Notes: generated by a model not told the origin, from the sequence alone. Counted from the stretch's first letter, positions 13,201 through 63,935 are shown. The stretch is 64,000 nt of DNA from Blasia pusilla (GCA_050084515.1 CM114271.1:37324001-37388000), one strand, 5' to 3'. Made by a program: numbers and translations.

Positions 13201-15309
13201 ACCCACCGAAATTTGTATGAGTTGAAAGGTCGAAACTCTTGCTGAGTCACTGTTCTTGTTCGCCAACCATACAAAAACTTGTCACTTAGAATGTGGAAAC
13301 TCACTATGTGTAGTCATTTGTTTCTGGGATATATGCTAAGTGTTCCAATTCCTGTGTCCAATCATTGATCGGATATCATACTCTACATGTGAAAGGTATT
13401 GGCTGAATATAGTGAAGATATTCCCATGGGAAGAGTCAGGAAAACTTGGCAGTTCACATTGACATTTTGTAGAATAGAGACGGCAAACAACGGATCCCTA
13501 TCACGGTAATATTTGATGTGTACAGCCTCTTACTCTCAGCGGGACAGGTATACCCAGCTTTGCTGAGCACTGAAGATTCCAGACATTCGGCATGCAGTAT
13601 ATTGTGAAGGGTACACTAACATCCTTTCATGGAAACCTTCCACACTCTGACAACATTTCCAAGGCTGCTCACAGCCTCTCCACTATATGAAGCTTGAATT
13701 CTGAAAATAGAGCATCCTCAAGGAACATTTATCACATAGAAGTTCAGCTGGGATAAAGGTAAGATGGGCATGAAATGGTGTCCAGCAGTATGGGAGGCCT
13801 GGCACAGACGAGATTGAGTTGTCTTAGGGGGCACAAAACCTAATTTAGAACGTCAGGAATTAAGGAAAATTGTGAAAGATTCTTTCAATAAAGACAACAG
13901 TTGATCAGTGTCAGTGACATGATCACCAAAGACCCTTGTCTAGAGTCTTGGACAACTACTGTCTATCCGTTCAAGGATTTAAGTTACACACCTTGCAATT
14001 TGGTTGATTTTCTACTTGGCAGCTACGGTGATTCTCCTACAACTGAGAAAAGACAAAATTGCAAACATTGACACCACGAGAATGTACCTGTGCTTCTGCC
14101 AGGCACACAAGGCTCATAATAGTTGCCATTGATACAGTTGCCTCAGGAGGCCTGTCAGGAGGGAGAAAAGGTTGCAAAGCTGGTAGAACTTTCTGAGCCA
14201 TGTGTTGATACACCCCTGCCGCTTGCCGGAAAAGCTGTGCTGATTTGATCAAGTCTGCCAAACAGTATAGTTAAGTCTCCAATGGATGGACTCATATTTC
14301 TCTAGAGTACATATAATTCATACTATCCCCATGCAAGGAAACTTTGATAGTAGAATCAGGTTTACATAATAACAAATCCAGTGCTGAATGTACTCCAAAC
14401 TCCTGCTCATGATGGAGTACGAAGTGAATGTAGGTCATACTTGAATTGCAGATTGAGCACTTAATCAAACTACAGGAATTATGAACAGGACAACCAACTC
14501 AAAAGAGCCCCCCCCTAAAACCCCATAACCATGTCTCATGGATAGTAACATGTCTGACAATGGTTGTCAAGTAATTTTATACCTACTGGTAGCATCTCCA
14601 ATGCTCTCTCTCTCAAGAGAGCTGCGAACAAGAAGAGGATCATTGAAAGCTCAAAGCGAAGATCATCAATTCGAAAGTACTTGGGCCCAGATAAACTGTG
14701 GCCACTTGACCCACTTAAAGGGCTGGTCCAACGAATTCGAAGATTGACAGTCCATTGTTGAACTTGAGGTATACAATTTGCTTTTGGATAAATACACTCA
14801 ATAAGATTTTCGAGAAGTGGCAGGTAGTGCTCCAATTTCAGCAGATCCTGCATGACAAAAAACAAATGCACAATTGTTATGCTCTTTGAAGATTCAAATT
14901 TGAAACACGGGTACTAGAACAATAAAACTATCATCTGCCTCACAATAAGCGTTCAAGTGTACCTGTGCAATTGGAGATTCCACTCCACCCGCCATTTCCC
15001 GGGCGATAGCTGGAGTGAGATGGCTACTTCCATTTATTGATTCTTCAATAGACCTCCGCGTGCTACTTAAGTCCCTAAGTTGTCCCAAAGTGATGGAGTC
15101 ACGAGCGTAATATGATGTTTCAAAGGTAACCTGTCCATTCACAAACCCGAAATTTTAAACAAGAATTATAACAAGAAAGCAGCTCCGAAGGGTATCATTA
15201 CTACTGATGAAACTCTGAACAATATGGCAAGGTAGAAAAAGTGTAACCAAGGAAGAAGATTTACATTTCTTGTTTTAAGCTTTGGTGGATCTTGAAAATG
15301 CAGGAGCAT
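10204..15309 (-). CDS. BRAF: Plant BRO1-domain endosomal (ESCRT-associated) protein, BRAF-like; 7 coding exons, 381 aa
   Basis: Exons 15309-15265, 15130-14963, 14847-14583, 14254-14088, 12682-12533, 12112-11968 and 10409-10204 all have GT-AG boundaries with compatible phases (1146 nt). Translation MLLHFQDPPKLKTRNVTFE..LSSTRRSIEESIN..AREMAGG..LEHYLPLLENL..LFRQAAGVY..CLAEAQ..KLHYG..ENEFIWRERIP resembles plant BRO1-like proteins of the Arabidopsis BRAF type (recognised from memory). Confidence 0.85.
12778..13247. repeat. 237-bp tandem duplication inside intron 4 of the BRO1-domain gene
   Basis: GTCTG(G/A)CACTGGGAACTTCTTGATC...CTCTTGCTGAGT starts at 12778 and 13015. Confidence 0.9.
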
Positions 15310-21125: not shown

Positions 21126-23755
21126 TGTTGGATTCTCAACATCCACTTCTGTGAGCACCATTAATCACATCGGCCTCCTTGTATGAGAAGAAGCCTAGAT
21201 TGATGGTTCCGACTTAGACGTCGGAGGAGTCATGGTAATATGATATAGGTGGTTTATGGAGCAGCGTTACTAGGATTATCTAACCCTCTATTTCACTAGG
21301 ATGTTGGGCACCCAGATGCGTCGCGGGGGTCCTAGGTCGTAGCCTCTGGTATGCCAAGACGATGCGATTTGTTGGGGGCTACGTCATTGGCAAAAATTTT
21401 CTATTAATAAAAACAAAGAAAAATAGGTAAAAAAACCCTAGTTTCCCGAGTAGAGAAATAGTTGGAGCCGCAGCGGTAGCGCATTCTCGTATGTCGAGTT
21501 ATCTCCATGTTCAAGTTCCATCGAAGCTCTTCTGTGAGCGCGCGGACAGACTATGTCACTTTGTATCTCTAAGTTTTGTAAAGATTTCAGTGATTTTGTC
21601 ACTTTCTATTTTCTAACATGGTATCAGAGCAGTAGGTTCTCTAGTATTTTGTATTTGGCGATCTAGTGTGTTTGAACAAAATCTTGAGAGATGGCTACTT
21701 CTTCGTTAGTTCGTGCTCGCCCTCCTCCATTGTGTGAAGGGAAGTTACATGGGTCTAACTATACATCGTGGAAGTTCAAAATGAGAATTGTCCTTGAATC
21801 ATTTGAGATCTAGGAGACGGCTACAGGGGTCCATTCGAATCCACAAACTACTTTGAGTTCTCCATATTCAACTTCATTTGGTGATATCGATCATGTTGTA
21901 TTGCTGGCATGGAAACGCATAAACGTTGATGCTCTATATGCGCTTATCACGAATGTAGCTGATTCTGTCATGACTCTCATTCAACATATGACCAGTGTTG
22001 CTGAGGCGTGGAACATTCTTAAGAATCAGTATGAAACAATGAATGAGACTCGGATTCACAATCTGGAGAATCAACTTACGTCCGAGAAATTTTCAGAAGG
22101 AGAAAGAACGGAGCAATTTTTTACAAGGATCAAGAATCTTCAAGATCAGATGGCGTCCGTAGGAATTTCAAAGTCTAGCAAAGATTTGGCACTTCGGTGC
22201 ATAAGGATTTTGCCTCCAAGGTATAACAGTTTAATCACTGCATTTAATACTCAAGTAAGACCCACATCGCTTACTTTTGAAAATTTTAGTGCAATTTTGG
22301 TAGAAGAGAAATGCGCTTCAAAGCAAGAGAGGGAAGTGATGCAGCATTTATTGCCAAGGTACAAAGAGGTAGAAATCAGCATGATAGTTCAAATGTCAAG
22401 AAGAAATTTCCAAGCAAAGCCTTCAAATACTTTTATTGTGGTAAGCTATGTCATCTTATCAAAGATTGTAGAAAGAAGAGTGATGATGAAAGAATGGTAT
22501 TTTAAGACCTAAGAAGGAGTCTTAGGTCTTAAACAACCATTCTGTAGAACTAGGAGAACATGAAGTAGATGCTTGGGTACCAATCAATGAGTTTTTCACA
22601 CAAGTAGAACATTCCACTAAGTCAAAGAGTGAACATGGATGGGTGCTCGATAGTGGAGCATCTAGGCATATGACTAATCATAAGGATTGGTATAGCTCTT
22701 ATAGTCTCTAGAGGAGCCCATCATTGTTACTATTGGGAATAATGCAAAGTACCCTATAGAAGGAAAAGGTACAATTTCTTTAGTCTCGCAAAAAGAAGAT
22801 GAAAAGAAGTTAATTGATGTATTGTACGTACCAGAGTTGAAGCGCAATTTGATTTCAGTACCAGTATCATGTGATCGTGACCTAGAAGTTTGTTTCAAGA
22901 AAATTGGAGCAGTCTTTGAAGATGCCAATGGGAAAGTGGTGGGTGAATATATACGACGTGGAAATATCTACGAGATGTATGCATTCACGATAAGTGTAGG
23001 TACAAATTTTACTATCAGTAAGTTATGGCATGAAAGATTTGGTCACCTAAGCTTTCCCTTACTAAGTTAGATGCAGAAATCTAACATAGTTGTTGATTTA
23101 TCAATAATTTCTGAGTCTCGGATACATGTGAAGCTTGTATGATGAGCAAGCAACAGCAACAACCATTTCCACAAGAGTCCAGCAATAGAGCAAAAGCTCC
23201 TCTAGAGCTGATTCATGATGATCTTTGTGGTAAAATGAGAACAGTGGCATTAGGTGGTTCTTCTTACTTCTTTTTAGTTATTGACGATTATAGTACGAAG
23301 ATGTGGATGTATTTCATTCTTGATAAGGCAAGTGCTTTTGGAAAATTTAAAGTATGGCACAAGCTGGTTGAGAACGAGACAGGAAAGAAGGTACAAAATC
23401 TTCGCACTGATCGAGGAGGAGAATTTTTATCAAGAGAATTCAACAAATATTAGGGGGAGCATGGAATCCAGCGACAATTAACCAAGGCACATACACCACA
23501 ACAAAATAGAGTTGTTGAGCGCCTTTGGAAAAAAAATTCTATTAGTAGAAACGAAGAAAAATAAGTAAAAAAGCCTAGTTTCCCAAGTAGTGAAGTAGTC
23601 GGGAGCCGCAGCGATAGCGCATTCTTGTATGTCAAGTTATCTCCATGTTCAGGTTCCATTGAAGCTCTTCTGTGCGCGCACGGACGAACTAGGCCATTTT
23701 TATCTCTAAGTTTTGTAAAGATTCATGTGATTTCATCATTTTCTATTTTCTCACA
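21126..23755 (+). mobile_element. Ty1/copia LTR retrotransposon, internally deleted (no RT/RNase H)
   Basis: 5' LTR 21126-21618 (TG..CA) is followed by PBS TGGTATCAGAGC at 21619-21630 (tRNA-iMet type). Coding remnants: gag (NYTSWKFKM, zinc knuckle), protease WVLDSGASRHM, GAG-pre-integrase LWHERFGH and integrase core LRTDRGGEF. The sequence then jumps into a partial 3' LTR (~23525-23755). 5-bp TSD TGTTA on both sides. Confidence 0.92.
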
Positions 23756-26021: not shown

Positions 26022-26957
26022 CTCATCAAGCGGTAGATGAACAAGATGTTAGCTTAACTGAAATAATATCTTCTCAAAGAGGTCCCCGGTTCAACTCTCC
26101 CCTTGGACAATAGGAGCCATCCTCAACCCTAAGGCACTGACGTTTCCTACCTAGGATATGGATAGTCATTGTTTGAGAGAGAGTACGCCTTGTTCCTTTC
26201 ATGTGTGTGTGCCTTAACTATGCTCCCGAGTCAAGAATTTGGAAAACAAATCCAAACCTTCACTCCAAAACCAAATCTCCTCCGTGGAAACCCCAAACAT
26301 AAATGTTTAAAATCTAGATGTGAAGGTGCATGTCGGAAGCCAAGTCAATATCACATATCTGGAAAGGGTCCCATAAGCCACATAGACTTTTTCGAACTGC
26401 AACCTTAGCTACTAGCCGACCTTCATCATCTTTATCTTCCATTCTAGAAGTATAAATAATTTCCAAAGTGAAAGTAGTGCTTTGGTTACTCTCCTTCCCA
26501 AATTAATAAAAATTTCTATCTTTTGAGAAAAAAGAAATCGATGTGTCTCATAGGTTTTCTCTCCATGGCTATTTCAAATATATTTACATCTCTCTCAAGT
26601 TATGCGTAGAATTGATTTGGGTAAAAATACTCATTGGAGATGCATGATGGCACCAAGTGGATATGTTTGGTGTGTAACCACATGTTCTTACCCAAAAACA
26701 AAATAAAGTGCAACCAACATCTGATTAAAACCATCCAAACATGGACCAATGCTACTTAGTTCAATTGGAACATCCAAGTAGACTTCCTATGGACCCTAGA
26801 GAGGGCTTAAAAAGGCAAATTAGTGATCCCCAAAGAGGAAGATATTTTGAGGAAATCTAGTTATGCAATTAAGTGAAAGAAAAATGACAAGAAGAAATTA
26901 TATCCATTGTGCCAAATTCTTTTGAAGAGATGACAAGCAATCAAAGAAAGTCCTTGG

Positions 26958-27095
26958 TGTCGTGCGCATACATATCGCTACATAACATACATCGCTGGTC
27001 ACATCTACACTACACAACACTAATCTTCCCCAAATACGGGTCGATCCACACATGTACAAAAATCAACTCATACATATACATGGAGATCACACAAC
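26958..27095 (-). repeat. Terminal repeat segment A1 (138 bp)
   Basis: Direct repeat of 27578-27715. Confidence 0.93.
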
Positions 27096-27109
27096 AAAAA
27101 TTAAGAGTA

Positions 27110-27575
27110 GTAAAAACGGCACACCCGGCCTAAAACTCCACTCCTCAATCTACATCCGCATATCGAGCCTTGTCCACCCTAGGCTATCAAGGAATCCGGA
27201 CGCTAGCACCCTAGTCATATCTCACACACATACAAGAGAGGTGCTCCAACGGCCCAACATGAGAAAGATGGCTTAGGAAAGCCATCTTCCTCTCTTATAT
27301 AGGGTTGGGAAGAGCCAAAAGGCTCTTCCCCTAAAAATAGCTATCCCCTTGATAACCTGTGCGCACAGGTTACCAGGGGCGGGTGACATGGTCAACAAGT
27401 CATCCGGCTATAGAAGACCTCAATAGGAAAGTTGTCGAAAACAACGTTCCTGACACAATGGACCTATCCTCAACCTCATCCGACACTGTGGGATAAAGTT
27501 ACACTCAAGATAGTCCACTGGCTCCTACGCCCTATCCACGATAGATCTTGGCCTATCGGCTACTCAGATGTGACA
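27110..27575 (-). repeat. Repeat segment B1 (466 bp)
   Basis: Ungapped direct repeat of 36360-36825, about 39 mismatches by manual count (~92% identity), mostly transitions. Confidence 0.95.
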
Positions 27576-27577
27576 GT

Positions 27578-27715
27578 TGTCGTGCGTATACCTATCGCTA
27601 CACAACATTCATTGTTGGTCACATCTACACCACACAACACCGATCTTCCCCACACACGGGTTGATCCATATATGTACAAAAATCAACTCCTACATATATA
27701 TGGAGATCACACAAC
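27578..27715 (-). repeat. Repeat segment A2 (138 bp), joined to B1 through 2 nt
   Basis: On the minus strand: PPT-like tract, A2 ending CGACA, then AC, then TGTCAC starting B1. Confidence 0.93.
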
Positions 27716-27724
27716 CGCCCCCCT
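27716..27724 (-). promoter_or_regulatory. Polypurine-tract-like sequence
   Basis: AGGGGGGCG lies directly before GT-TGTGTG (start of A2), downstream of the pol stop. Confidence 0.6.
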
Positions 27725-27791
27725 AGTTGGCAGTTGGATCCCCCCAACTCCAGATAGAAAATATCACATCTCTCTAACATGACCTACTACC

Positions 27792-27935
27792 CTATACACA
27801 TCTCAAACACATCCATCGTCTCGTGGGAACTACATCAAGAGGGGGGGTTCAGACATGACATATGCCACCCTCGAGAACAACCATCACATACCAATATGGT
27901 GGTTGCATCCCTCGCAGATCCGCACAACAAACACC
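27792..27935 (-). pseudogene. PHD finger at the integrase C-terminus
   Basis: CLLC..ILVCDGCSRGWHMSCLNPP, then LDVVPTRRWMCLRCV* after correcting one frameshift in the G run at 27841-27847: a complete C4-H-C3 pattern. Confidence 0.85.
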
Positions 27936-28429
27936 TCAAGCCTGCACGTACCACTGCCAAACTCGGATCCAGTGTCCCGTCTACGTTCGAAAGATGACAT
28001 GGTGCACAATTGCGCCCATGATCCTTCCAAACCATACAATCCCGTGCCTCCAATATGAGGACTCCGGTCGGTAATACCTCGCGCACACATAGGATCGTGC
28101 GTCCTGCAGTGACATCCAACGTCATGGGTACCGCCTCTTGTAAATACACGTAATCTCCAGGATGAAACCTCCTAATCCTTGAACGATAACCTCCTCCACG
28201 AATGGTCGCGTACCTCAATGTATCTCTATGTTGAGCAATAACTAAGTTCTCAAAGGCCATAAGCATAACTCTATGAAAAATTTCCGCCCTTTGAGAACAC
28301 GCTTGTCCCCACACATCTGGATCATCAAGATCTTAGACCTCCGCCATGTCACGTTGAATAGCTACAAGTAAATCCATCTCTCTCCCAAAGAGCAAGAAGT
28401 ATGGTGAAAATAACGCAAAGGATGCATGC

Positions 28430-29060
28430 TAACTAAAGCGATAACCCATAGCCAACCATGGCAACTGTAGGTCCCACTCCCTCAATTGTCCTCGCTGCAA
28501 GCCATACTTGCGCAATCCTCTCTTCACCGTCTGTACTACTCTCTCCGCCAACCCATCCGCCTCAAGATGATCTCTAGATGTGGTGCAGTGATCTATCAGC
28601 GTCTGATCACAAAAGGCCTGAAACTCTCCCCTGAACTCGGTACCTTGGTCAATCAACACCTCCGCCGGTGCACCAAAGTGACTAAGCACACGACTAGAAA
28701 AGCATAGGTTGTTCCCTCGCTCGCCTTGTCCAATAGTGCCACCAACTCTATCCACTTGGAGAAATGCTCCACCATGACCAACACGTATCTATGATGACAC
28801 CTCGTCAATGGCAAAGATCCCGCAAAGTCTAAACTCCACTGATAACCTAAACCCATAATCGGCAAAGGATGTAACTGCGGAGTGGGAGCATTGAAGGATG
28901 CTCACACTCTGTCACATACCATACATTTGGCCACAAACTGTTGTATCCCAGTATGCATGCCGCGCCACCAATACTGAACTTGGAGTAAGCTGTAAGTACG
29001 CTTCACTCCAAAATGTCCCAACTCCTCATGGGCATGTCGCACTACACGTGCTCGCTGGGA
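28430..29060 (-). pseudogene. Gypsy-type DDE integrase (degenerate)
   Basis: WSLDFAGSLP, VMVEHFSKWIELVAL, FGAPAEVLIDQGTEF, ADGLAERVVQTVKRGL. Confidence 0.9.
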
Positions 29061-29439
29061 AGGATGAGGTACCACTCATATCCTACCATCTCCCCTTACC
29101 CGCCAAATGTGAGTCCCCTTCCACCTGAACCTCCTGGCTTGCCGTAGGATCTGATCCCGCTCCCTAGCACTCATTGTGCTCGCTATGACGCCAGTGTGCA
29201 AGAACTCCACAACCTCCACGTCATCATGGATATCACGACCACCTGTCGCCTCCTCACTGACCTCCGAATCCAAAGACTCATCATCCAACCCCACTACTGG
29301 AGTCATCACTTGTGGCTGACCTACCATTGTCAACCAACAAAGATAGGCATATGCATGCCAACCGGGCACTATCTCCTCATCACTCTCTCCGTGCCATCGA
29401 GCTCTTGTATTGTCTCTCTGGCTCAGACATGGGTTACGA

Positions 29440-30480
29440 CTCAACCCATTCACATCTTGGTTTAGCCACTCCCTCTCCTCATCATCCCTCTGAGTAAGCA
29501 CTGCTCCTAGATCCAACATGCTCCAATCCGTATGTAAATGGAATGGGTGACCCCTAACCGGTCTCTGTAAAATAGATAAGGAGGTCAACCTGTCCTTGAG
29601 TTCCTAAAATGTTGGCTCCTGATCATCTCCCCACAACCAAACCTGATCAAGTCTCAACAAGGTCAAAGACTTTGCAATCGCACTACAACCCTTCACATAC
29701 CGTCGATAGAAGTTTGCCAGTCCAAGAAACGCTCAAACTCGACTCACATTTGTAGGGCGTGGAATCTGCGCAATAGCCTCCTCCTTTGTCTGATGAGCGC
29801 CTAACCCACTCGGGTATATGGTGTGTCCCAAGTACTCAAATTTCTCCTTCAAGAATCTACACTTGCATGGATGTAACTTCAGTCCATGTAACTGCAATCG
29901 CGGAAACACCTCCTCCAGGTGTCGCTCATGCTCCTCAACCGTAGAACTGAAGATAAGAATGTCGTCTATGTAACACCGTACAAAATCAAAGCCAGCCATA
30001 ATCCTATCCATCACTTTCTGAAACTCTGCAGGCGCATTCTTCAACCCCAAATGGTAAGAATTGCCATTGATACAAGAAATCTCTCCAGAACCGATCTATC
30101 CCCCATAATGTTGTCTTCTCCTATCCTCCAACTTGATAGGAAGTTGATGATAGCAAGCACGAAGATCTAAAGTATTGAAGATCTTTGCATGCCCTACCGC
30201 ATCAAAGATCTCCTCAGGCACGGTATACCAATCTGACCTCGTCTATCGGTTAATAGGAAGGTAATCTCCACACATCCGCCTATCCGTCCAATTGCCATAC
30301 ATATCCTTCTTCGCCGGCATGATTGTGGCAGATGCATACTCCCCATGTGATAACTCCACAAGGCCTGCCTCCAACAAGTCCTGACTCCTGCTCTGAATCA
30401 AGGCTCGCTACATATCAGAATACCTGTAGGGTCGACGAAAGATTGGCGTATCACTAGCCAACTCAATCTGTATCCCGGGA
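29440..30480 (-). pseudogene. Gypsy reverse transcriptase and partly deleted RNase H
   Basis: GLKNAPAEFQKVMD, YIDD at 29961-29972, LKLHPCKC, YLGH; RNase H FHLHTDWS..LGAVLTQ. Confidence 0.92.
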
Positions 30481-30919
30481 CCCTTTAGCGTACCTAAGTC
30501 TCTCATACTGAAGACAAAACAACTTACATGCCCTCTCTGAAAACTATGAACTCACAGTCGCTCTCCTCCTATCAACTTGAGACATATCACAGGCTCTCAA
30601 GTCTCCATCATCACCTCACTCAGCGAGGACGGAACCTCTAGCTTTGGTTGCTATGTAGCAACCCTAGCCACCTCCGCAATAGTCACTCCACTATGACCTC
30701 CTACGCCATGCTCCACATCCAAAAAAACAAACATGTGCTACTCTGTCCGCCTTCGCACTCTCTGCTTGAATGACGTCCCAGGAAGTCCATGGGTGCCTAT
30801 CTCTCCTCGTCCCACCCCCAGCCAATGCCTGTATAGACCCTGTAGGAAATGGTCCAACTCGTGGACGTGACAACATGGATGACACTCGCATCCGTCTATG
30901 CTCAGCCATACCTAGGTTG

Positions 30920-31870
30920 ACTATCCATGTGAGACCGTTGAGGTCCATTGCGTGCCCCAACACCTGTCTCCCGGATGCCTCAATCATACTTGGCACCGCC
31001 GTAGTACCCGTAGCAAACCCCCTGGCGCGCTCGCGCTCATCTGTTGTAGGCTCCTCTAATGGTCATGTCACCTCATCCCAAATCATGCCTGTCCCTCCCT
31101 GACAAAAGGCATGGGATGCAGGGAAGCTCACCAACGTAGGTAAGGCTGCCCTCAACTCCCCCACCCTATTGGCCATCGCCAACGGTGGTCTATCATCCCG
31201 CGTCACCACCTGAGATTGACGCCCAAAGCTCAAAATAGCATCCACTATGAGATGTGGTGCTCTCTATACTCTATCGTATGCTCGACTAAATACCTCTGAT
31301 GGTATTAGGTTCGTCCACCATAATCATGGACAATGGGCACGTGATCCAACTCTCGCTGCATCTTGCAACACAACAGGTCCCAACCAGGACCTCACCTGAT
31401 GCACACTCGTCATCACACGTGCACGAGTGTCTCCCAACAATGGCACGTTCTCCAAAATGTACGCTGGAGAAGATGTCTGACTCTCCTGCAAGTGTTGTAC
31501 TACTCGCAACATCTCTCAAAATATCCATCACCTCGGATCTTACAATCCAAATCCTCGCACAGCTGATGAATGACCCTGACATGGCCATCCAGAAATCACC
31601 AAATGAATAGTGCCAACTCTATCCAGGTCCTACGCCCCCACCAAAGAGATGTCCGTGGGTAGTGTATGCAGATATCCCCGTATTGCAGATACCGGCAACA
31701 ACTCACGATACCTCTGGACCAATCTCGCTACGTAACGTAGTGATACTAGTCGCGTAGTCTCATGTCTCTCCACATAAAGGTACTGATGCACCCGTATGCA
31801 TGACTGCAATACTGCAGCCAATATGGTGCTAATCCCTCCGAAGAGATCTAACACCCTAACACCCTCCTTG
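30920..31870 (-). pseudogene. C5-cytosine DNA methyltransferase domain (DNMT3-like) within the retrotransposon pol region
   Basis: One reading frame broken only by in-frame stops. Motif I VRVLDLFGGI; II YLYVE; III LPTDI; IV HLVISGWPCQGHS (GWPCQ at 31576-31590); VI YILENV; VIII DAARVGSRAHCP*LWWTN; IX ERERARGF; X RQVLGHAMD. Confidence 0.9.
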
Positions 31871-32249
31871 GACATTACCACACAATGGGTGTAGTATCCA
31901 GTGGGATTAACGTCTCCACTTCAGGAGCCCGATCCCCACGTGACTCTCGCTGCTCCGGGATAAAGGCATGACTCCACACCTACCTCACGAGGTCGTCGAC
32001 ACTCCTTTGTAGCTCTTGAGTCATACCTCACAATGGTGAAGAGTTCTCGCCCATAGGGGAAGAGACATCCACCATGGCCAGTCTCTCCGTGGGACTATCC
32101 GCTATAGGGACATCCTCCGCATGTGCATTCCACTCCAACAACTCTCCTCGCCAACTAACACTACCTATGAAAGTTGCCAACGTGATCACAGACTCGTCTT
32201 GTGATTGACCACCTCGTCCCACAAACTGCACGGGTAACTGACTCATCTG

Positions 32250-32620
32250 GCCATCACCTGACCGCCATCCTAGTCGATAAGCAACGGTCTCCTTCCAGAA
32301 GTCAAGGATGAATCCTAGGGGATATAACACTGTACTCCCTACCAACACATTATACGACTCATGTGGTGTCGTAATCGCACGTGTGTGCACCATAGCACTA
32401 ACTGTTGCATGCTCTGGCTGGACTCTGACAACTATCTTCTGTTGAGTCATATACAGCATGGGTGACACGCCCCCAATCGAGATCTGTATCTAGAAGGAAT
32501 AAGTCTCAATGTCGGCCTTCTGTATCCCCAACGCTAAACACGCCGCCTTCCCTAACATCAAGGGCTGCGCTTCCGAATCAAGTAGGACGCGCTACGGGTG
32601 GTATACAATCCCCGTTGGAC
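32250..32620 (-). pseudogene. Retroviral-type aspartic protease
   Basis: RVLLDSEAQPLMLG (32551-32591) and YNVLVGSTVL; copy 2 retains LLDSGAQ. Confidence 0.75.
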
Positions 32621-33449
32621 TAACCAAGAAAAATACTCCAGCTCGGTTATCCAGTAACATTACTCCAGGTGTTACCACTGCTCGCTCTATGGCCGGTCGA
32701 GCTGGCATATCTATCAACTTCGCCGCCGCCGTATGCCATGACTCTGTTGGGGACATCCCGAGCATCGGCTCTGAGGGCAAGTCCACCACCTCCTCAACTA
32801 CCTCTGACCAAGAAGTAGTCACCTCTCCACGCTCACACAACGTGGCGGCCAGCCGGAACACCACAGCTCGTCCAACTCCCAATGTCGCCAACTCTATGGC
32901 GGAAAATAGCGGAGTCTGACTCACTCAGGTGGCCACCTCCAACACTATGGTCGACACTGAGTCCACTCGAGCTGGCATAGGAGTTTTCACTCCAACTCCT
33001 CGTGACGTCCACCTAGATGCCTGAGCTGTAGGCACCTCTGGTTGTCGAGGCACCATCAATGGTGTGTGTAGTGCCTCCGACAATGTGAATGATTGTGGAA
33101 CCCTGGCTTGCCGTCCATCGGTCCCCTCCGGTAGGTCAATCTCAACTCCACCTCTCGATGGCTCGGTGCCTCTCGTAGCATCCCGAGTCACCACTGCAGC
33201 CGCCTCAACCTGAGCTGCACTACACATAAACCCAATACTGGCAAGATCCTCACCCGGGTCAGGGTAAGAGGTAGAAGCTGGAGCCACACTAGTTGCTCGC
33301 GGCTCCGTGCCTTCCGTGAGTTGCATCATCATCATGACAGCAATCCTCTGCTCTAAATGATCGATGCGTGAGAGAAATGTTGGCTCTCGTGCTCTTGCTC
33401 CATCTCCTATGGCTGGTGGTTGTCCTCTACCACCACGTCCAGGAAGAAC

Positions 33450-34629
33450 TCCCTGATCTCCTCCAAGACGACCACCCCCAGGCCCTCGGCCTATCTCTAG
33501 ACGTGCCTCTCAACGAAGGTCAAATCATCTATCCCTAGTGGGACCATATCTGGGGCAATAGTCACACTGGTATTGTGGTGGGGCCATCCTCTAGGGCTCC
33601 TAAGCAATCAGAAGCGCTCGTGGTCCTCTCCCATGCTCTGTGTAGTCTCTCTGCCTATGGGCCCCTCCACACGTCCAGCAAGACAACATATGTAGGTACG
33701 GGTCGTTGCCTCATAGGCTCACAATATCCGCCCTGCTCTCTGGGCACACTGGCCTCCTCCTGTGGTATTGGTGCTCATTGTGGCACCTGTGCGGTCACCA
33801 TCGCTCGTGGACCCGTCGACTCTCAAGAAAATCCAGCGGTCACTACCTGCTCCTCACTCATGTTAAGCTCAATACGCTCAGAAAAATCATAGACCACCTT
33901 CAATGTGGGCTTCGTTGTGTGAATCAGCACCGCATCTCGGAATCTCCTCCGTAGTTCTCGGTCTAGATTCCCAAACCAATACTGGACGGACTGCGCCTGA
34001 GTCACTCCATACGTAGCATTGATCAGCCTCCTCATGCGCGTTAATGCCTCTCTTAGACTCTAACCTGATTGTCGCTGAAAATCATGTAGACTCTTCAGCT
34101 TGTCAATGCGTACACCCTGGTAGCTCTTCCCCAACTTTCGGAAGAACTCCATTGTGGGGCTGAAGCTGGGTGGCCCTCTACCACTAGAGGTCTCTGCCAC
34201 ATCGCCTGTCTCACTGCCCTCCTCTCCATCTAGTCTCCGGCCTAATGGTGTGGGTTTCTCTCCTCTCACAATCCCATCATATGCATCGCGACCACTAGTG
34301 GACACATACCCTAGAGCCCAATACATCCTCCAGGCATCGATCTCTATTGAATATAGTGATCAAAACTCCATGTAATCATCCATCAAATGACCCTCCAAGT
34401 GCTGGAACAACCCCTTCCATGCCATGAAAGGGTTGAATCGTGTTGGGGTCCGTATCTCTTGGTAGTCGCACCACGTATCAAACTCTTGGATAAAATCATC
34501 TAAGTCGATGGTGCCCACTGCACCCAAGAAACGACGCATGTCTCGATGGCCCATGTCATCCATCTCCTGCCAAATGATATTGCCTCCGTCTACGATCTCG
34601 TCACAAGACCCAATATCTAGTGATGACAA
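33450..34629 (-). pseudogene. gag-like region (degenerate)
   Basis: DLDDFIQEFDTWCD..FQHLEG..DDY and LHDFQRQSG, plus zinc-knuckle remnant CDYC near 33560. Homologous blocks occur in copies 2 and 3. Confidence 0.75.
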
Positions 34630-36347
34630 TCTAGCCAGAGATGGATGTCACGGTAGCTCCTCACTGGTAACCCCTCGGTATCTCACTCCACTCTATGTCA
34701 CACCTCTACTACTGCTCGCACTTCCCCGTTCTTCCGAACCCTGGAAGAACGTCGTGATGACAACCTTGTCTCACCTGCTCAAGCACTCAGACTCACCGAA
34801 AGTCTCCCACACTCTTTACTAGCTCACCTATGCTAACGTCGATCTTGTGATGAATACCAAACCTCATGCACACTCAACACTCATGCTCACCATGAGCCTC
34901 CCAACTGACTCACCTAACCTAGTGACACTCTCTCGGGTCATACACGCGACCCCTACTTGGAAAACGTCGTACATCCACCAACATGCTACACATGAAAAAA
35001 GCCTACACTCGTCACCATCACTGCACCCACCTAGCACCAACTACTACCCGATACCCAGCACTCTCAATCACACACGATAAGTGCGGGAAAAGGGACTCAA
35101 ATGGGTAACCTAATCACGCCCTCCAACCTACTGTATCGTCAACACACACTCCTCCATGTGGTTCGACAACCTCTGTAGCACAACCATCTCCTTGTACAAC
35201 ACGACAAAAACCTCATGTCAATGGATGCGGACTACCCATCAGCATCAACATACTAACACTCCGTCATCAGCTCATCGTTGTAGAGGTTCCATCTCGACCC
35301 CAACTATGTAACTCTCCTCAAACCACATCATGGCTCCTACCACGTACTCCGCCCCAATCTCTCTTGCTCATCCTAATCATCCACTTCCCATGAAGCGCGC
35401 AAGACACCGCTGATCCTTGGGGCCCATAAAGTCAAACATCACCAATCACCTGTAGGGAATTACTCGATCCAAGCTTGAGTGCCACCCTTGTCCGCCTCCC
35501 AGGCTGGACCCGACCTCCGGCTCATGCTTCTCTTATTATCCGTATTGCTGCCTGAGAGATTGAGACTCCCGCCCCGTCGATCCAAGGACCGCGATTACCC
35601 CAAACCCTGCCCAAAATCCCGCTCCACCAGTTCCGTCTCCCAACTCTCCACTTTTGGTTCCCAGCTTTGTCACTTCCGGCTCCTGGGTTCATCACTTCCG
35701 GCTCCCTTTTCCTAGTCCCGCACTGAAGTTCGGGCACGCTGCCTTATGCAACTGCCCACGTTCTTGGAGGTCCTTTCTCCCGACTCTCCCCTCTCTACCG
35801 CGGCCTTGGCCCTATGTGGCCCGTTGAGGGCACGTAACCCTATGCGGTTGCAACCCTACTTCCCTCCATCCTCAGAGCCTGTGATGCGCGTCCCTATGCA
35901 CCCGGTCCACCAAACCTCCCCCGTGTGACACTTGGCGGCCACACGATTGGCTAGCTTTACTCAGCCCGACCTGGGTACCTTCCGCGCCTTCCTCCCCACT
36001 CATAGTGCCCTATCCCTATCACCTGCGCGATCTAACCCTAGGCGACCTAGCCGCCCTTTACTTGACAGCCCCCCGGCGGTTGCAAGCCCTAACTCTCCTT
36101 CTTGGTTACTCCCAGCATTCTTGCTATTAGATGACGTTACACCTACCGTCACAACCTACGCTACACCCTACTCTTGTCCCCAATGAACCCGCACCATCAA
36201 AATCTGAAAAAAACGGACAGCGCTTCCGCGCATAGCCTTCTGAACAGAGAAATGACCAACGCCCGCAACACACGCATTTCCAAGGGCTCTTGACCGAGGC
36301 AACTCCCTTGCCTACCTGCAAACAATGAATTCCCACCAGCCCCCTAG

Positions 36348-36361
36348 CATCTTTCTCATGT
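36348..36361 (-). promoter_or_regulatory. Putative self-priming primer-binding site
   Basis: Minus-strand ACATGAGAAAGATG at the inner end of B2 is the exact complement of LTR sequence 27257-27270 (one mismatch to the B2 equivalent 36507-36520), which lies ~30 nt downstream of a TATATAA box. Confidence 0.75.
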
Positions 36362-36825
36362 AAAAATGGCACACCCGGCCTAAAACTCCACTCCTCAATC
36401 TACATCCGCATAGCGAGCCTCGTCCACCCTGCGCTATCAAGGAATTTGGACGCTAGCACCCTAGTCCTATCTCACACACATACAAAAGAGGTGCTCCAAC
36501 GGCTCAACATAAGAAAGATGGCTTAGGAAAGCCATCTTCCCCTCTTATATAGGGTTGGGAAGAGCCAAAAGGCTCTTCTCCTAAAAATAGCTATCCCCTT
36601 GGTAACCTGCACGCATAGGTTACCGGGGGCGGGTGACCTGATTAACAAGTCACCCGGATATGGAAGACCTCAATAGGAAAGTTGTCATAAATGATGTTCC
36701 TGACACAATGGACCTATCCTCAACCTCATCCGACAATATGGGACAAAGTTGCACTCAAGATAGTCCGCTTGCTCCTATGCCCGATCCACGATAGATCTTG
36801 GCCTATCGACTACTGAGATGTGACA
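36360..36825 (-). repeat. 5' terminal segment B2 containing a TATA box
   Basis: Repeat of B1; TATATAA on the minus strand at 36545-36551. Confidence 0.93.
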
Positions 36826-38872
36826 TTGGATTCCTTACTTGGGAAAGAAGCCATCCTTGTTGGCTTTAATGGGGTTTAATTTCCATGAGTACTTTCACGT
36901 GCATTATTGGGAAGACCTCTTAAATAGCAAAAATTGTGGGCATTGTCTTGGAAAAGTTCAATGACTACCAAACAAGCAATGCCATTATGGAGATAGTTGC
37001 GTTGGGTTGTTGGATACCATTGAGAGAGCTAGTAAGACTAGGTCTAAAAGATTATTGGGAGGGGTAAGCAATATTTTTTGCACCTAGACTTGGTGAAGAA
37101 ACTATGAAAGGTGGTGGAGAAGAAAGGGGTTGTGTAGTTGGACTTTTTTCCTTGTGAATCTTTTAATCCGAGAGATAAGCAAGTGAGGGAGAAAAATTCT
37201 TGGATAGCTAGAAATAAGCAAAACTTGATGGATTGGCTTGAAGGAGATCAAGGAAAAATTTTCATGGCCAAAAAAAATGTAAGGAATAGTTGGAGAAGAG
37301 GAATTTAGAGGAAGTGGAGGAGGTTTGTAAGGAAAGGGCATGTAGCTTTGTGCCCAAAGAGAAAAGAGATGAAGATCTTTGAGATGCGGTAAGAGAAGAG
37401 GAAGATAGGAGAGAGGAAACTATTGTCAATCCGAAGAGACCGTTTTTAACAAAGTTTCATGTGATTTGAAAAGAGTTTCATATGTGTTGAAGAGAGAGAG
37501 GTATTTCTTAGTTCATATTTTATGTTTATGCTCCTTCTTCATAGGCACTTCCTCCCCATACTTTTATTCTTCTTCCCTACTATGGAAATTCATCTAAATC
37601 TAACAGGTCGCACCACTCATGAAATAATATTGTATCCAATTAACACTCAATAGATAGTTCCAAAATCGAAAGAATTCATTGGGAGTATAAATGTGGAAAT
37701 ATGGCTAAAAGACGATTTGAGTGGAATTTGCAAGTTTTGCACGTGGATAAATTCCGTGTGGACAAACTTATGTCTAACAGAATAGTGTCGGGCATGCGAC
37801 AAGGTTGTACACGGACAAGGTGTGTGTTCATGGATATGTTTATGATCGTGTGGGCTCCGATTCCCCCAGCTACCACCAGGCCTTGTCCCATTTGCAAAAT
37901 AAACTCGAGCTCGGCCATCCCACACCAAATCTAGCAATTTGTCGCCAATTCTTGCCACCCGTCTTATAGCCTAGACCAAGCCTTCTCTATCGCGTCCCTA
38001 CTCTCCTTGAACGTCAATCTTTAGTGTTGCGGAAGCGTACGTTAAGTAGGTCACGATCTCATCACCGATCTGCACCCAAACATGCACTCTCGTTAGTCGG
38101 GTGTGGGCCAACCAGCGTTCCAACCCATTGAGTTCTCAACTCGCTGTCTCATCAAGCTCAACCTTCCTTAATTCCTAGTTTCCAACACATGGCAAGTCTT
38201 TCAAGACTTAAAACACACTTCCTGGTTAGTCCAGGGATCTTAAACGGCACTAGCGCGCCTAGTGATCCCAACTGTTCAATGGACCTCGTGTGAGTTTCAA
38301 AATGAGACCCAAGTAATTGAGTCGCGGGGTGAAATCCAAGAGGGATGTCTAAAATCACCTCAATAGACTTGGTGCACGTTTTCCAACCCAACCCCCAAAC
38401 TCTTGATCCGTTCCATGCCCTTGAGCCACCCCGCGGCGCCCAAAGTGGGGTTCGAGTTCCAAGCACTCTCGGAGACCTTCCCCCTTACTAATAATCAGGG
38501 TTCTCCAATAACCCCTCTTTGGAAAAGGAGGGTCGGGCCCTTCATTGTGGCCCTCAACCCGACTCTACTTATAGTCGTTTCCGAGTTGTTTCTCAGCCGC
38601 TGCTTATGCGTTTACAGAGATCTTAAGTGCGTTTGAACCTGCTTTCCATAAGCCTTCCAACGCACCCTTATTTAATCCAAACGCATCTTGGAGCTAAAAT
38701 TTATGGCCATAAATACAGTCAGAAACTCTCAAACGCTAGTGGCGTTCCAAATCCGGATTCTTCCTTTGGCAACCCACTTCCTAGACTCAACTTCTTTCAA
38801 GTCTTGTTCCGCTTTTGGTCCAGGTTTCTCAGTCGCGACCATAACATCTGAAACACGAAGCCTCGCTTGCGT

Positions 38873-39100
38873 CTCATCTCTTGTCTCTTCTTCGAGACCA
38901 CTCCAACGCACAAACCATCTTAGCGTGAGCCCACTAATGTTCCGATGTTCCGCTTTGGCACTCGTTTGGTGATGAGGGTCACGACACTCACCTCTTGTCT
39001 CTTCTTCGAGACCACTCTAATGCGCAAACCATCTTAGCGTGAGCCCGCTAATGTTCCGATGTTCCGCTTTGGCACTCGTTTGGTCATGAGAGTCGCGACA
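38873..39100. repeat. 114-bp tandem duplication, each unit ending CGACA
   Basis: Units 38873-38986 and 38987-39100. Confidence 0.9.
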
Positions 39101-41034: not shown

Positions 41035-41820
41035 TACCTATATTTTTAAGTGCAAACATGTTATTAAAAATAAAATATTTCAAACTTTTCTATTTTTAAT
41101 AACAAAAAAATAGGAATCTAAAAAGATTAAAAAGCTTAAGAAGCTACTCCTCTCTTTAGTTCGGATCATTCTAATATCATCTTGCCATACTTCAAGAATG
41201 ATGTCCTTACTATTCTAATCACTTCTTAATTAGTTAACTTCCAAGTGTGAGAAAATAGAATGTGATGAAATCACTAAACTGTATTACAACTCTTTGAGAT
41301 ACAAAGTGGCCTAGTCTATCCGTGCGCTCAAAAAAGAGCTTCGATGGAGCTTAATTAGAATAGTAAGGACATCATTCTTGAAGTATGGCAAGATGATGTT
41401 ATAATGATCTAAACTAAAGAGAGAAGTAGCTTCTTAAGCTTTGTAATCTTTTTAGATTCCTATGTTTTTTTTTTATTAAAAATAGAGTAGTTTGAAATGT
41501 TATATTTTTAATAACATGTTTGCACTTAAAAATATAGTAGTTTGAAATGTTATATAGGTAGTCTATTTTGAATAAAAAATATATAGGAATCTAAAAAGAT
41601 TACAAAGCTTAAGAAGTTACTCCTCTCTTTAGTTTGGATCATTCTAATATCATCTTGCCATACTTAAAGAATGATGTCCTTACTATTCTAATTACTTCTT
41701 AATTAGTTAACTTCCAAGTGTAAGAAAATAGAATGTGATGAAATCACTAAATTGTATTACAACTCTTTGAGATACAAAGTGGCCTAGTCTGTCCGTGCGC
41801 TCACAGAAGAGCTTTGATGG
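41035..41820. repeat. Direct-inverted-direct local triplication
   Basis: ~41111-41349 is repeated at ~41585-41820; ~41354-41540 is the reverse complement of ~41035-41220. Confidence 0.8.
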
Positions 41821-42017
41821 AACCTGAACATGGAGATAATTTGACATACGAGAATACACTATGGCTCCCAACTATTTCACTATTCCTGAAACCACCTATC
41901 TTATATTACTATGATTCCTTCGATGTCAAAGTCAGAACCATCAATCAAGGCTTCTCCTCATATAGGGACTCGATCATATAGACGGTGCTAAGAGAAGTGG
42001 ATGTTAAGAATCCAACA
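41719..42017 (-). mobile_element. Copia solo LTR, same family as 21126-21618, internally deleted
   Basis: Reverse complement starts TGTTGGATTCTTAACATCCACTTC, like 21126. 5-bp TSD CCAAG at 41714-41718 and 42018-42022. Confidence 0.88.
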
Positions 42018-51253: not shown

Positions 51254-54200
51254 TGTCGTGCGCATACACATCGCTACACAACATACATCGCTGTCATCGA
51301 ACACACACACAAACAAACAAACTCCCATGCTAACTCATGGCATCCATACACACAGGCAAGAAGTACCAAAATATGTCCCAAGCTAATCCTCACCACGACC
51401 TCCTGTCGGGTGATATACTGTATGGTACTCGCTCCACCCAAGGATGTCTGTATTCGGAATGGACAACACTCCACATCGGCTCTCGCCAAGCCCAATCCTT
51501 TGAATGACGCTTTTCCCAACATCAAGGGTTGCGCTCCTGAATCCAACAAGACGCGCTGCGGACTAAAAGCTCTACCTCCATGACTCACCAACTAGAAGAC
51601 CTCTCCTCGGTTATCCAGCAACACAACACCAGGAGAAGCCATGGCACGCTCTATCGCGGGTCTAGCGGGCATCTCCGCCATCCTAGCATCCGTAGCTTGC
51701 CATGAATCTGACGTGGTCGGCCTGAGCATCCGCTCCAAGGGAAGGTCCATCACCTCCTTTGCATTCACCTCTGAACGTGATGCAGAAACTCCAACTCCGC
51801 GCTGACATAGTGAAGCGGCCAGCCGAAAAGCCTCCGCGGGCGTACCCCCCAACGTCATAACATCAGAAGCAGAGAATAAAGGAGTGCGGTACACAACGGT
51901 GGCCGCCCCCAACAACGTGCTCGACACATGCCCCTCTTGAGCATCAACAATAGGAGTCATCCTACTCACTTCTCCCATTGCCCTCTGTGCTTGCACACCA
52001 ACAACATCACCAACTCTTCAGGAACTTTGATGAGGACCCATCAATGGGGTCCTCATTGCTTCGGACAACGTGAAAGATTGAGGAAGCCTAGTCTGTTTTG
52101 TGGCTTCCCCTCGTTGTGGATCCAACTCTGCGGCTGCTCCACGCGTCACAACTACGGCGGCCTCCATTTGGGCAACCCCGCACATCCAACGAGGATCCTC
52201 CAGATCTCTGGCTGCTCCATATGATGTCGATGCCACCAATCCGGCATCGAGTAACCTCAATGCCATAGCGGCAATCTGCTCATGTAGCTGCTGTATCTGA
52301 GCAGCCATCCTAACTTCACGTCCGGTGTCTATCTCGGTGCGTCTAGGTGGTGGTACTCTACCTCCTCCACGGGCAGCTCCACCACCCTGTCGGGAAACTC
52401 CAGCTCCTCGTCCCCCAACGGGACCACATGGTGCACGATCTCTAGGCCCACCCGAACCGGCTACTCGCTCTGGTGCCCTCTCTGGCCCTCGGTCCGGACA
52501 TAACTCAGGATGTAAATTAAAACACCTAGTGCGTGTATAACCATACCTCTGACAATAGTCATACTGATAACTTCATGGTGTAGCACCATCTCCTCCTCCA
52601 TGCTAGGGCACACCTCCATGACCCTGATGAGTGCAATCATGCTTATGATGGGCTCCGCCACATGACCAACAAGTAATACTAGGTGGATGCTGCAAAGCCG
52701 TATATGAAGGTGCAGGTCTCTGTGGCACGGCCTCTCAAGATCCTTCATGAGCTTGTGGTGCCATAGTCGACCTATCTTGGAGTCCACGTTGCTGCACAGG
52801 TGGTGCAGACAATCGTGACTGCTCTCGCCTTGAACCCATGATCACTACGCTCTCCTCCGCCATGTTGTGCTCAATGTTCTCGGCGGTCCTAAAAACATCT
52901 CTTAACATAGGGGAGGTGTTCATAAGAAGCACCCCCTCCCGCACCCGTGTCCGTAAGGTCCGGTCCAGCATCGCGTACCATGACTGGATAGCCTCAACCT
53001 CTATCACCCCTTGAGTGACGTTGATCAACAGGCGCAAGCGAGTGTAAGCCTCACGCAAACTCTGACCCAGGCGCCTCTGGAAGTCGTGGATGCTCCGCGA
53101 CTTCTCCATCCTCCTGGTAGCTCACCCTCAACTCAACAAAGAACTCAACCACAATGTTGAACTCCTGGGACGAACCCGACTAGACGGTGCAACTACTCTC
53201 GTGCGAGTGACCCCTCCTAAAAGAACACTACTGGAAGAGGAAGTAGCCTCTCCTGACTCCTCCTCCTCATCTGGGAACGGATCTGTCCATGACACATAAT
53301 GTGGGTCATAGTAGAGCCTCCACACCTCGATCTCACGTGCATATCTATGAGAGAACTCATGGTAATCGTCCATGGGCGCCCCCTCTAAATGCTGGAACAT
53401 ACCGTTCCATGTTGTAAATGGGTTGAACTCTCTAGAGTTCTTGGGCCACTGGGAGTCGCACCAACTCCTAAACTCTACTATGAAATCGTCCTCTCAATCG
53501 TGCCTACTCCACCTAAAAACCTACGCGGTTCTCTACCCCGGTCACCCATCTCGTACACCCAACTGGTAGGACCACTCACAATATGTGGCAATGTGCTCAC
53601 AAACTCCTCTACATCCTCCCCCTTGTCTGACGATGACACAGAAAGAGGTCGAGGTGGTCCCTCACGTGGAGATCCTCAGAACCTCACGCCACTCCACGTA
53701 AAACCTCTAGAGCTACTATCGGGTTCATCACCTCGCCTCTCAAAGTCTCGAAGACTCTCCGTGATGACCCTCGTTCCCCTCTCACCCAATCACTCTCAAC
53801 CTTGTGAGTAATCCCTCAATCACTCATCCCAAACATGCGGCACGCGATCTACACTCTCCCTCCCCAAGACGTGTAACATGCGACAACACGCGGCGTGGTG
53901 CGGCAAATCGACCAGGCTATCATCTCATCGACAACCTACCCTCAACTCCGGACATCCCACAGAGATCTATGTCCCCTAAACCACATACATAAATGATGCT
54001 CTCAGCATCCACACACCCAATATCCCTAAATAAACTACCCAAATCCTATAATCCCTCACACGTGCAGGGTAAACAACCAGAATGGATAACCTGAACACAT
54101 GTCGATGTCGGTCCTCAGCAACTGCAAATCTCAACCCCAACTTGGTCGTGGAGAAAACTCCTTCAATCAGCAAGTCATACTCCTCCCGTTCTGACGCTGC

Positions 54201-57061: not shown

Positions 57062-57249
57062 GTGCGCTTTATGTCCGCTATTTGTAGATAATGGATTAAA
57101 CAAAGGCATAAGTCGTGGTAAAAGCTTTCATAATCGTGGTGGATATAAAGTATATGGAGGAAGAGACGCTTAACATAACTTCACTTAGTCAATTATGAAC
57201 GAGTACCAAACACAATCACAAGGTGGTCGGTGATGTTGGAAATCGTTTG

Positions 57250-63805: not shown

Positions 63806-63808
63806 GCA

Positions 63809-63935
63809 TTGGAGATATTTTGGTACTTCTTGTCTCGTTGTTTGGATGCCATGAGTTAGCATGGGATCATGCGTGTTTGTGTGTGTGTTCGGTGACAGCG
63901 ATGTATGTTGTGTAGCGATGTGTATGGGCAGGACA
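63809..63935 (+). repeat. Inverted copy of terminal segment A abutting the B terminus of copy 3
   Basis: Reverse complement of ~51254-51381; ends GGACA. Confidence 0.88.

Follow-up and report, generated by a model that had tools for sequence, protein, structure and literature searches.

How does a retrotransposon that encodes a DDE integrase come to be joined to its host DNA by sequences from the middle of its long terminal repeat (LTR)? The question is raised by an element at positions 26954-36829, target-site duplications included, of a 64,000-nucleotide (nt) stretch of the genome of Blasia pusilla (GCA_050084515.1 CM114271.1:37324001-37388000), which we call the window and whose positions are counted from its first letter. 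LTR-finding software and textbook models equate the ends made by reverse transcription with the ends used for integration, and the lineage described here departs from both. Judged from its sequence, the locus is probably a dead copy of a high-copy Ty3/gypsy-type element of the Gypsy-DNMT3 kind, with an inherited split-repeat layout, which integrated at a junction-like site inside its own LTR. We extend this more tentatively, with a confidence that falls a little short of even, to a lineage of DDE-integrase elements in streptophyte algae, liverworts and further hosts, which may integrate obligatorily via a circle-junction-like attachment (att) site inside the LTR, from complementary DNA (cDNA) joined head to tail.

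Layout of the element and its repeats

The element lies on the minus strand, as do all of its features given below. In that direction the order is a target-site duplication (TSD) TTGG, half-repeat B2, a primer-binding site (PBS), a coding region running from gag through DNA methyltransferase (DNMT), reverse transcriptase (RT), RNase H (RH) and integrase (IN) to a PHD finger, a polypurine tract (PPT), half-repeat A2, the dinucleotide AC, half-repeats B1 and A1, and TTGG again. The TSD on the 5' side (36826-36829) is identical to that on the 3' side (26954-26957), which was read directly and found by pattern search. B2, the 5'-terminal half-repeat (36362-36825), adjoins the PBS (36348-36361). 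The PPT, a G-run reading GGGGGGCG on the element strand (27716-27723), abuts A2 (27578-27715), an internal half-repeat whose first bases are GTTGTGTG. B1 (27096-27575) is a full copy of 480 nt, and A1 (26958-27095), the 3'-terminal half-repeat, ends in ...GCGCACGACA-3'. In the general notation used below for relatives, B2 and B1 are X1 and X2, and A2 and A1 are Y1 and Y2. The repeats, coordinates and split order proposed in a first-pass annotation hold on re-alignment, with TTGG at both ends, 88.4% identity between A1 and A2 over 138 nt, and 91.6% between B1 and B2 over 466 nt (27110-27575 against 36360-36825). The family has a single copy in the window.

On its own strand the element starts with TGTCAC and terminates in CGACA. 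The same motifs meet in an internal att-like junction, CGACA-AC-TGTCA (27571-27582), composed of the end of A2, a two-nucleotide spacer and the start of B1; the spacer appears as gt at 27576-27577 of the strand presented, which is AC on the element strand. Given a putative self-primer PBS at the end of B and a G-run before A2, the LTR of reverse transcription is A-AC-B (Y-NN-X in general), permuted relative to the integration ends. This LTR had already been recognised in the first-pass annotation, together with genomic ends at the mid-LTR site, TG..CA termini and a 4-bp TSD, and both readings are supported here. The complete LTR that an ordinary Ty3/gypsy element carries at each end is absent, the 5' end having B only and the 3' end A-AC-B-A, likewise in nine independent relatives. 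The TG...CA termini and short TSD (TGTCAC...CGACA, TTGG) are those of a Ty3/gypsy element, and the split direct repeats with an internal copy of the junction are of the DIRS type. A true LTR of the order B-A, with TG..CA ends and a damaged 5' LTR, is ruled out, because A never follows the 5' B in any copy. The PPT stands at the start of A and the PBS at the end of B in every copy examined.

The usual annotation tools would probably report such elements wrongly, as LTRs made of B alone with a stray A beside them, although the family is a large one in this genome.

The layout across the family in raw reads

A conventional element that was rearranged once at this locus, or wrongly assembled, could give the same order of repeats, and the window holds a single copy of the family, old and decayed. 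We examined this explanation with public reads of the same organism aligned to 26700-28100, sampling about 1 in 100 reads of the raw whole-genome shotgun run X16; a second run, X17, gave nearly identical figures. Depth in X16 was 0-0.8 in the flank bins (26841-26934), about 2150 in B, about 1110 in the internal region next to the PPT and, in the family-specific parts, 1086 in A1 and 1026 in A2 (sum about 2110), so that B, A and the internal region stand at roughly 2:2:1. The family exceeds the flank depth about 10^3-fold, the flank depth being too low for a precise ratio.

At the start of B (27575), 622 X16 reads continue into unrelated and mutually different sequence (agreement 0.33); in many copies this point is a genuine junction with genomic DNA. 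At the end of A (26958), 2552 X16 reads have mixed loose ends (agreement 0.43), with a consensus tail GTGACAGT that represents the B/A2 context and a remainder made up of flanks and of a second family, to which the outer ~40 nt of A1 are common. The end of B continues into the constant PBS-side context found beside B2 in 570 X16 reads (agreement 0.84) and 589 X17 reads (0.86), and a class with diverse flanks at the end of B was not seen among the best-supported loose ends, from which all of these classes were taken (1938 more exist). Since a conventional element would show no diverse flanks at the start of B, the split layout is the normal state of the family. Contigs in Logan from another run (X1 records 1 and 2, a handle unrelated to half-repeat X1) also cross the A1/B1 joint.

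These reads also bear on the 14-mer at 27096-27109, which has no counterpart in the B2 of the window copy and which had been interpreted as a spacer through which the cDNA termini are joined. Because reads with the PBS-side context align through 27096-27109, B ends with the 14-mer in most copies; it is a constant part of the repeat and no end-joining filler, and it is B2 that has suffered a 14-nt deletion, between two AAAAA runs, at its PBS-side end. No indel at the B/A joint reached a share of 10% of the reads. A variable spacer had been named as the sign of end-joining and a constant one as the sign of a fixed structure; by that test, the constant spacer points to a fixed structure.

An accident confined to this locus is hardly credible on these data and is already refuted by the reads and the relatives. 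The raw reads contain the same junction classes at about 10^3-fold depth with diverse flanks, nine independent relatives have the same layout, and the layout has been published for Klebsormidium. The expectation that TGTCA and CGACA termini with 4-bp TSDs would recur beyond this locus, in place of ordinary LTRs at both ends, is borne out by the reads and the nine relatives alike. Small shares of the stretch were also present in air-metagenome runs.

Relatives in metagenomes

A profile of five polyproteins yielded 80 metagenome loci, and the 49 loci of at least 8 kb were each compared with themselves by BLAST. The layout X1-int-Y1-X2-Y2 was found in 11 of these 49 contigs, corresponding to nine independent loci (L061, L062 and L063 are one locus), all read within the group of relatives L039-L080. 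Their X is about 300 nt and their Y about 180 nt long, with no evident similarity to B and A of the window beyond the details of the termini: X begins TGTCATGCC and Y terminates in ...CACGACA, which gives the same TGTCA...CGACA ends. The internal junction CGACA-NN-TGTCA is present in 9/9 split relatives, point-mutated in some copies, and its two-base spacer is AC in four loci, GC in four and GT in one. A G-run stands directly before Y1 in all nine, and also in 12/12 contigs of one examined set, and X2 abuts Y2 exactly. The 4-bp TSD, judged by eye, is perfect in four of the nine (TGAC, TTTA, AATG, TCTA), agrees at 3 of 4 bases in three and is absent in two. TSDs across the lineage vary in sequence (TTGG, TGAC, AATG, TCTA, TTTA, TGCA), with no fixed target word. 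BLAST of X and Y against all 80 loci gave matches in 28 contigs, and none of these shows the mirrored order X-Y-X-int-Y. We regard X1-int-Y1-NN-X2-Y2 as the normal, inherited architecture of the lineage.

In the 26 more distant loci, a repeat search at relaxed settings revealed no flanking repeats, and contig-end overlaps occurred only in L007, L014 and L015. These overlaps span 122-169 nt at 84-100% identity and lie some 13.4-13.6 kb apart, a pattern that would result if assembly of these distant relatives had stopped within a terminal repeat.

A putative self-priming primer-binding site

The PBS, ACATGAGAAAGATG, is the exact reverse complement, over 14 nt, of 27257-27270 in B1, with one mismatch to the corresponding copy in B2. 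The window holds three matches, where chance would give 0.07. A TATA box (TATATAAG; 27294-27301 in B1) stands 31 nt upstream of the start of the complementary segment, and this arrangement points to a Tf1-like self-primer, in which the PBS would pair with the 5' end of the element's own transcript. Because the promoter and R-U5 all lie inside B, a 5' end that consists of B alone would still be transcribable. A look by eye, with no tRNA comparison run, found no tRNA-type PBS beginning with TGG after B2 or X1, and the putative self-primer accounts for the site. The first-pass annotation had placed the PBS after B, but did not recognise its likely self-primer nature or mention the Dnmt3-like region described below.

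The arrangement recurs in the relatives. All nine split loci have a TATAAAAGG box at X position 127-135 and, about 30 nt beyond it, a motif (T)AGTTTTTCTAGAATT, whose complement AATTCTAGAAAAACT stands at the end of X1. Complementarity is perfect over 15 nt in three of the nine loci, covers 11 nt in two and 8-9 nt in three, and does not reach 8 nt in one; the primer motif is recognisable at both sites in 13/13 loci. The primer sequence is entirely different between the window lineage and the metagenome lineage, and complementarity is retained in both. Changes at the PBS and primer within the group comprise a matched double change in L061 and unmatched changes in L065 and L080, and are not usable as evidence of covariation. 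The description of a putative self-primer is new here for both lineages; self-priming itself, according to the accessible part of PMC6317226, is a described property of Tf1/sushi elements and a predicted one of the Tcn1 elements found in mosses and club-mosses.

A rare opposite-strand joint was also observed, in which the end of B (27096) is connected to an inverted B that starts from the self-primer sequence (27257) and reaches towards the promoter for at most 77 nt; X16 has 8 such reads and X17 has 7. These inverted joints look like fold-back copies made via the complementarity of PBS and primer.

Coding domains and the integration enzyme

Pfam was run on single open reading frames and on six read-through frames in which stops were written as X. 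The minus strand carries a series comprising a DNA_methylase region, RVT_1, RT_RNaseH_2, Integrase_H2C2, two rve fragments and a PHD finger. Upstream of the RT, a Dnmt3-like cytosine methyltransferase region (30880-31920) occupies a single frame with seven stops and scores 20.8 bits for PF00145, for which the cut-off is 22; it includes the stretches DLFGGIS, GWPCQGHS and ILENV, which we take to be methyltransferase motifs. The RT and RNase H (29472-30209) consist of RVT_1 (about 29817-30209; E 6e-21) and RT_RNaseH_2 (about 29472-29633; E 5e-10). The DDE integrase (28429-29063) comprises Integrase_H2C2 (about 28905-29063; E 9e-16) and an rve core (28429-28901) broken between two frames, whose fragments, at E 0.001-0.002, fall under the Pfam cut-off. 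The C-terminal region of the integrase (27835-28332) contains the PHD finger (E 4.4e-07). With seven stops in the 347-codon DNMT stretch and five in the 331-codon RT-RH stretch, the window copy is dead.

Intact relatives complete this picture. The polyproteins P0024 and P0031 have RVT_1, RNase H, DNA_methylase, Integrase_H2C2, rve and PHD, all above cut-off, and the pol order RT-RNase H-integrase with DDE and H2C2 is that of Ty3/gypsy. The closest solved structure to P0024 is the Ty3 Gag-Pol polyprotein (7q5b; E 6e-81 over RT-RH), and its integrase region has prototype foamy virus (PFV) integrase as the best solved match (E 1.7e-18). The DNMT stretch, used as query, retrieved 33 longer homologues with PF00145; the best are liverwort proteins of Calypogeia and Marchantia (55-66% identity), weaker ones include one Sphagnum protein and metagenome polyproteins, and no Klebsormidium sequence is among the 33. 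The closest solved structures to the best match, P0001, are DNMT3A/3B (E 8e-11).

The DNMT domain lies upstream of the RT in the window and in P0007 of Marchantia, and between RNase H and integrase in P0024, P0031 and P0023. Because split repeats occur with both domain arrangements, the domain has either moved or been captured twice within the lineage. The PHD finger sits after the integrase, at the place that a chromodomain occupies in chromoviruses, and no chromodomain was found at the integrase C-terminus. In P0024 (residues 1623-1667) its best solved matches are the PHD fingers of KDM5 demethylases, CHD4, ATXR5 and UHRF1, which suggests chromatin-guided targeting. A Dnmt3 domain and a PHD finger together give this lineage a chromatin angle.

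The repeat layout would also suit a DIRS-like element, in which an unrecognised tyrosine recombinase, or another recombinase, inserts a circular intermediate site-specifically, as in PAT, Ngaro and TOC1. The A-coding-B-A-B layout matches descriptions of DIRS-order elements in the Fig. 1e legend of PMC5890265 and in the accessible part of PMC7192593, being a tandem-repeat form opened in mid-repeat (A1-coding-B1-A2-B2), and some DIRS members, in the sources as far as available, also carry a DNA methyltransferase. TOC1 itself is a non-autonomous DIRS element (PMC9940879). The enzymes differ, however: DIRS elements have a tyrosine recombinase and no DDE integrase, whereas the window element has rve and H2C2, TG..CA termini and 4-bp TSDs. 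A scan of the six read-through frames at E up to 0.1 gave neither a tyrosine recombinase (Phage_integrase, PF00589) nor any other recombinase family, and none appeared in the Pfam scan of six relatives (P0024, P0031, P0023, P0002, P0007 and P0022), which upholds the original view of a DDE integrase unaccompanied by a tyrosine recombinase. The varied 4-bp TSDs fit a DDE integrase and not a tyrosine recombinase; tyrosine recombinases are not known to make TSDs. Lacking the recombinase that defines the order, and flanked by TSDs, the element falls outside DIRS, and we consider insertion by a hidden recombinase very improbable.

A model of integration

Integration at the LTR-internal site can be set out as follows. 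The TATA box in X would drive transcription, and the first ~14 nt of the RNA would pair back onto the PBS right after X1, in the manner of Tf1-type self-priming; the poly-G PPT directly before Y1 would make Y-NN-X the reverse-transcribed LTR. The ends of this LTR would remain unused, and integration would proceed via the mid-LTR ...CGACA-NN-TGTCA..., where nicking each strand behind its CA, at points separated by 2 bp, would leave a recessed CA-3'OH with a 2-nt 5' overhang on each side, the usual processed end of a DDE integrase substrate. The DDE integrase would then insert the CA-3'OH ends, giving a 4-bp target duplication. At the X2/Y2 joint (B1/A1 in the window), the base immediately preceding the PBS is linked exactly to the one immediately following the PPT, which makes it the head-to-tail joint of the cDNA termini. 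The predicted substrate is therefore a cDNA form that contains this joint and is opened only at the att of the upstream LTR; candidates are a circle with tandem LTRs, or linear cDNA with outer ends that become joined at about the time of integration.

Internal cleavage of this kind has been reported for retroviral enzymes. In the accessible parts of the two reports, PFV integrase cuts the palindromic LTR-LTR junction of 2-LTR circles to give 3'-processed ends (PMC1180852), and the same cleavage of a CA...TG junction is reported for the integrase of human immunodeficiency virus type 1 (HIV-1; PMC1905944). In the retroviruses, however, the junction lies between two LTRs, its use is an accessory route at most, and ordinary LTRs are retained in the provirus, whereas in the window element the junction-like site is inside the LTR, has a 2-bp spacer and appears to be used obligatorily, with a permuted copy as the outcome. 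If so, the lineage would be a natural and obligate version of the model in which the LTR-LTR junction is the att site, a model abandoned for retroviruses.

A number of observations weigh against integration by this path as we have drawn it. A symmetric 2-LTR circle with two identical att sites would be expected to give mirrored copies in about half of the cases, and the chance of 0/9 loci is then about 0.002, which argues against random cutting of a symmetric circle; a directional step is missing from the model. In the genome of the window itself, the split and mirrored layouts are indistinguishable by short reads, and the metagenome relatives are short-read assemblies whose hosts are not known. 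The start of the transcript is one that we infer from TATA spacing alone. The rve and DNA_methylase matches of the window copy fall under the Pfam cut-offs, because that copy is decayed. Lastly, five contigs from four loci (L042, L059, L065/L066 and L074) have X-int-Y without X2-Y2 and extend for kilobases beyond Y, L042 with a perfect TGCA TSD. These may be direct integration products (the long arc from att to att), Y1/Y2 recombinants or assembly collapses. A wider list of X-int-Y-only contigs (L042, L059/L060, L064-L066, L074 and L069) has near or perfect 4-bp TSDs. We do not count such contigs as evidence for direct long-arc integration, as recombination between Y1 and Y2 gives the same product and L069 is chimeric, its internal part being 91% identical to L051 and its Y with flank 98% identical to the Y2 side of L051.

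A linear route would need no free circle. On this route, integrase would double-cut only the att of the upstream (left) LTR of linear cDNA, with both CA ends held in one intasome, and host end-joining would seal the blunt outer ends (end of X to start of Y) before or after strand transfer. The product, with its exact X/Y joint, would be identical, and since the two LTRs of a fresh cDNA differ in their distance from the end and in plus-strand completion, one-sidedness would have a natural source, in keeping with the lack of mirrored copies among the nine independent loci. The X2/Y2 joint itself occurs in the relatives in two variants that differ by 2 nt (CAAT/ATACATG and CAAT/ACATG), and the three copies with the shorter form do not fall in one clade on a tree of the nine copies; such scatter is expected if the joint is re-made in each cycle, but the variant lies in an ATAT context, where slippage after insertion could explain it. 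The joint in the window family, with the indel limit given above, is also cleaner than is usual for end-joining. We consider the linear route possible, though unlikely.

Alternatively, the joint could be made during reverse transcription. The RT would produce a linear X-int-Y-X-Y cDNA, or a longer one, by a plus-strand jump from the end of X to the start of Y, and integrase would trim it to the first CA sites. Such a jump would leave an exact and constant joint and, being strand-specific, would be directional, in keeping with the missing mirrored copies. The argument for it is purely inferential, no guiding homology is visible by eye at the joint, and integrase would still need to work away from the terminus, on a CA that lies 140-180 nt in from the left end; a template jump therefore seems improbable to us, distinctly more so than the linear route.

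Integration from head-to-tail-joined cDNA at the LTR-internal site, the reading we prefer, would make these elements a case of integrase elements convergent on the architecture of tyrosine-recombinase elements, in which an extra step selects the upstream att only. The anatomy, namely the permuted LTR delimited by the PPT and the self-primer, the conserved internal att with its 2-bp spacer, the exact joint, the TSDs and the one-sidedness, makes obligate LTR-internal integration directly testable. The lineage is a natural system for asking whether an integrase normally uses an internal junction site, and it bears on how cDNA ends are joined and how a choice is made between two identical sites.

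Relation to known elements

A published counterpart exists in KnitGypsy-Dnmt3 of Klebsormidium nitens, for which the Fig. 4c legend of de Mendoza et al. (2018; PMC5890265) gives DIRS-type repeats with Gypsy domains. As far as that source is available, it shares with our element the Ty3/gypsy pol domains, a Dnmt3-type methyltransferase inside pol and DIRS-like repeats. The host group differs, the best protein matches of the window element being liverwort, and the available text has no analysis of termini, TSD, att junction, PBS or PPT and no mechanism. A 2026 preprint, in its accessible part, mentions "streptophytes (Gypsy-DNMT3)" and leaves the repeats undiscussed. Our search of open-access full text and bioRxiv, with subscription journals and Repbase reports outside its scope, found no published analysis of termini, TSDs, the att site, priming, mechanism or one-sidedness. 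The first-pass annotation had treated the split layout as untypical of integrase-encoding Ty3/gypsy elements, and its claim of novelty is overtaken by the KnitGypsy-Dnmt3 report. With a Dnmt3-type domain inside a Gypsy pol and A-coding-B-A-B repeats both present, the window element is a further member of the known, little-studied Gypsy-DNMT3 type, whose layout has been in print since 2018.

Two other groups of elements resemble it in part. With Tf1/sushi elements and plant Tcn1 it has in common a PBS directly after U5 that is complementary, in its case, to the presumed transcript start and not to a tRNA. They have ordinary LTRs and usually a chromodomain, whereas the window element has a permuted LTR and, behind its integrase, a PHD finger. 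Yeast Ty3 shares the RT-RH-IN domain order; it has ordinary LTRs and a tRNA primer, and lacks both DNMT and PHD.

Other repeats in the window

The minus strand at 51254-63935 contains a second, rearranged retroelement complex. It has inverted A-like ends of 131 nt (51254-51384 on the plus strand and 63935-63805 on the minus strand, 88% complementary), two copies of a 5' part of 4.5-5.7 kb (51382-57062 and 59319-63806), and a DNMT-like piece (58546-59100) between the duplicated parts. Similarity to the A of the element studied here is confined to the outer ~40 nt of its A-like end (about 90%), and a TGTCAC... sequence resembling the start of B comes after the inverted end, at about 63804. In the reads, this second family is similarly abundant, with 1963 reads diverging at 26997 into its sequence. 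Elsewhere, the window includes a 33-nt tandem array at 1136-1300, a 237-nt tandem pair at 12778-13251, a 114-nt tandem pair at 38873-39100, and a cluster of direct and inverted repeats at 41038-41866 with related copies at 21464-21581 and 23602-23700.

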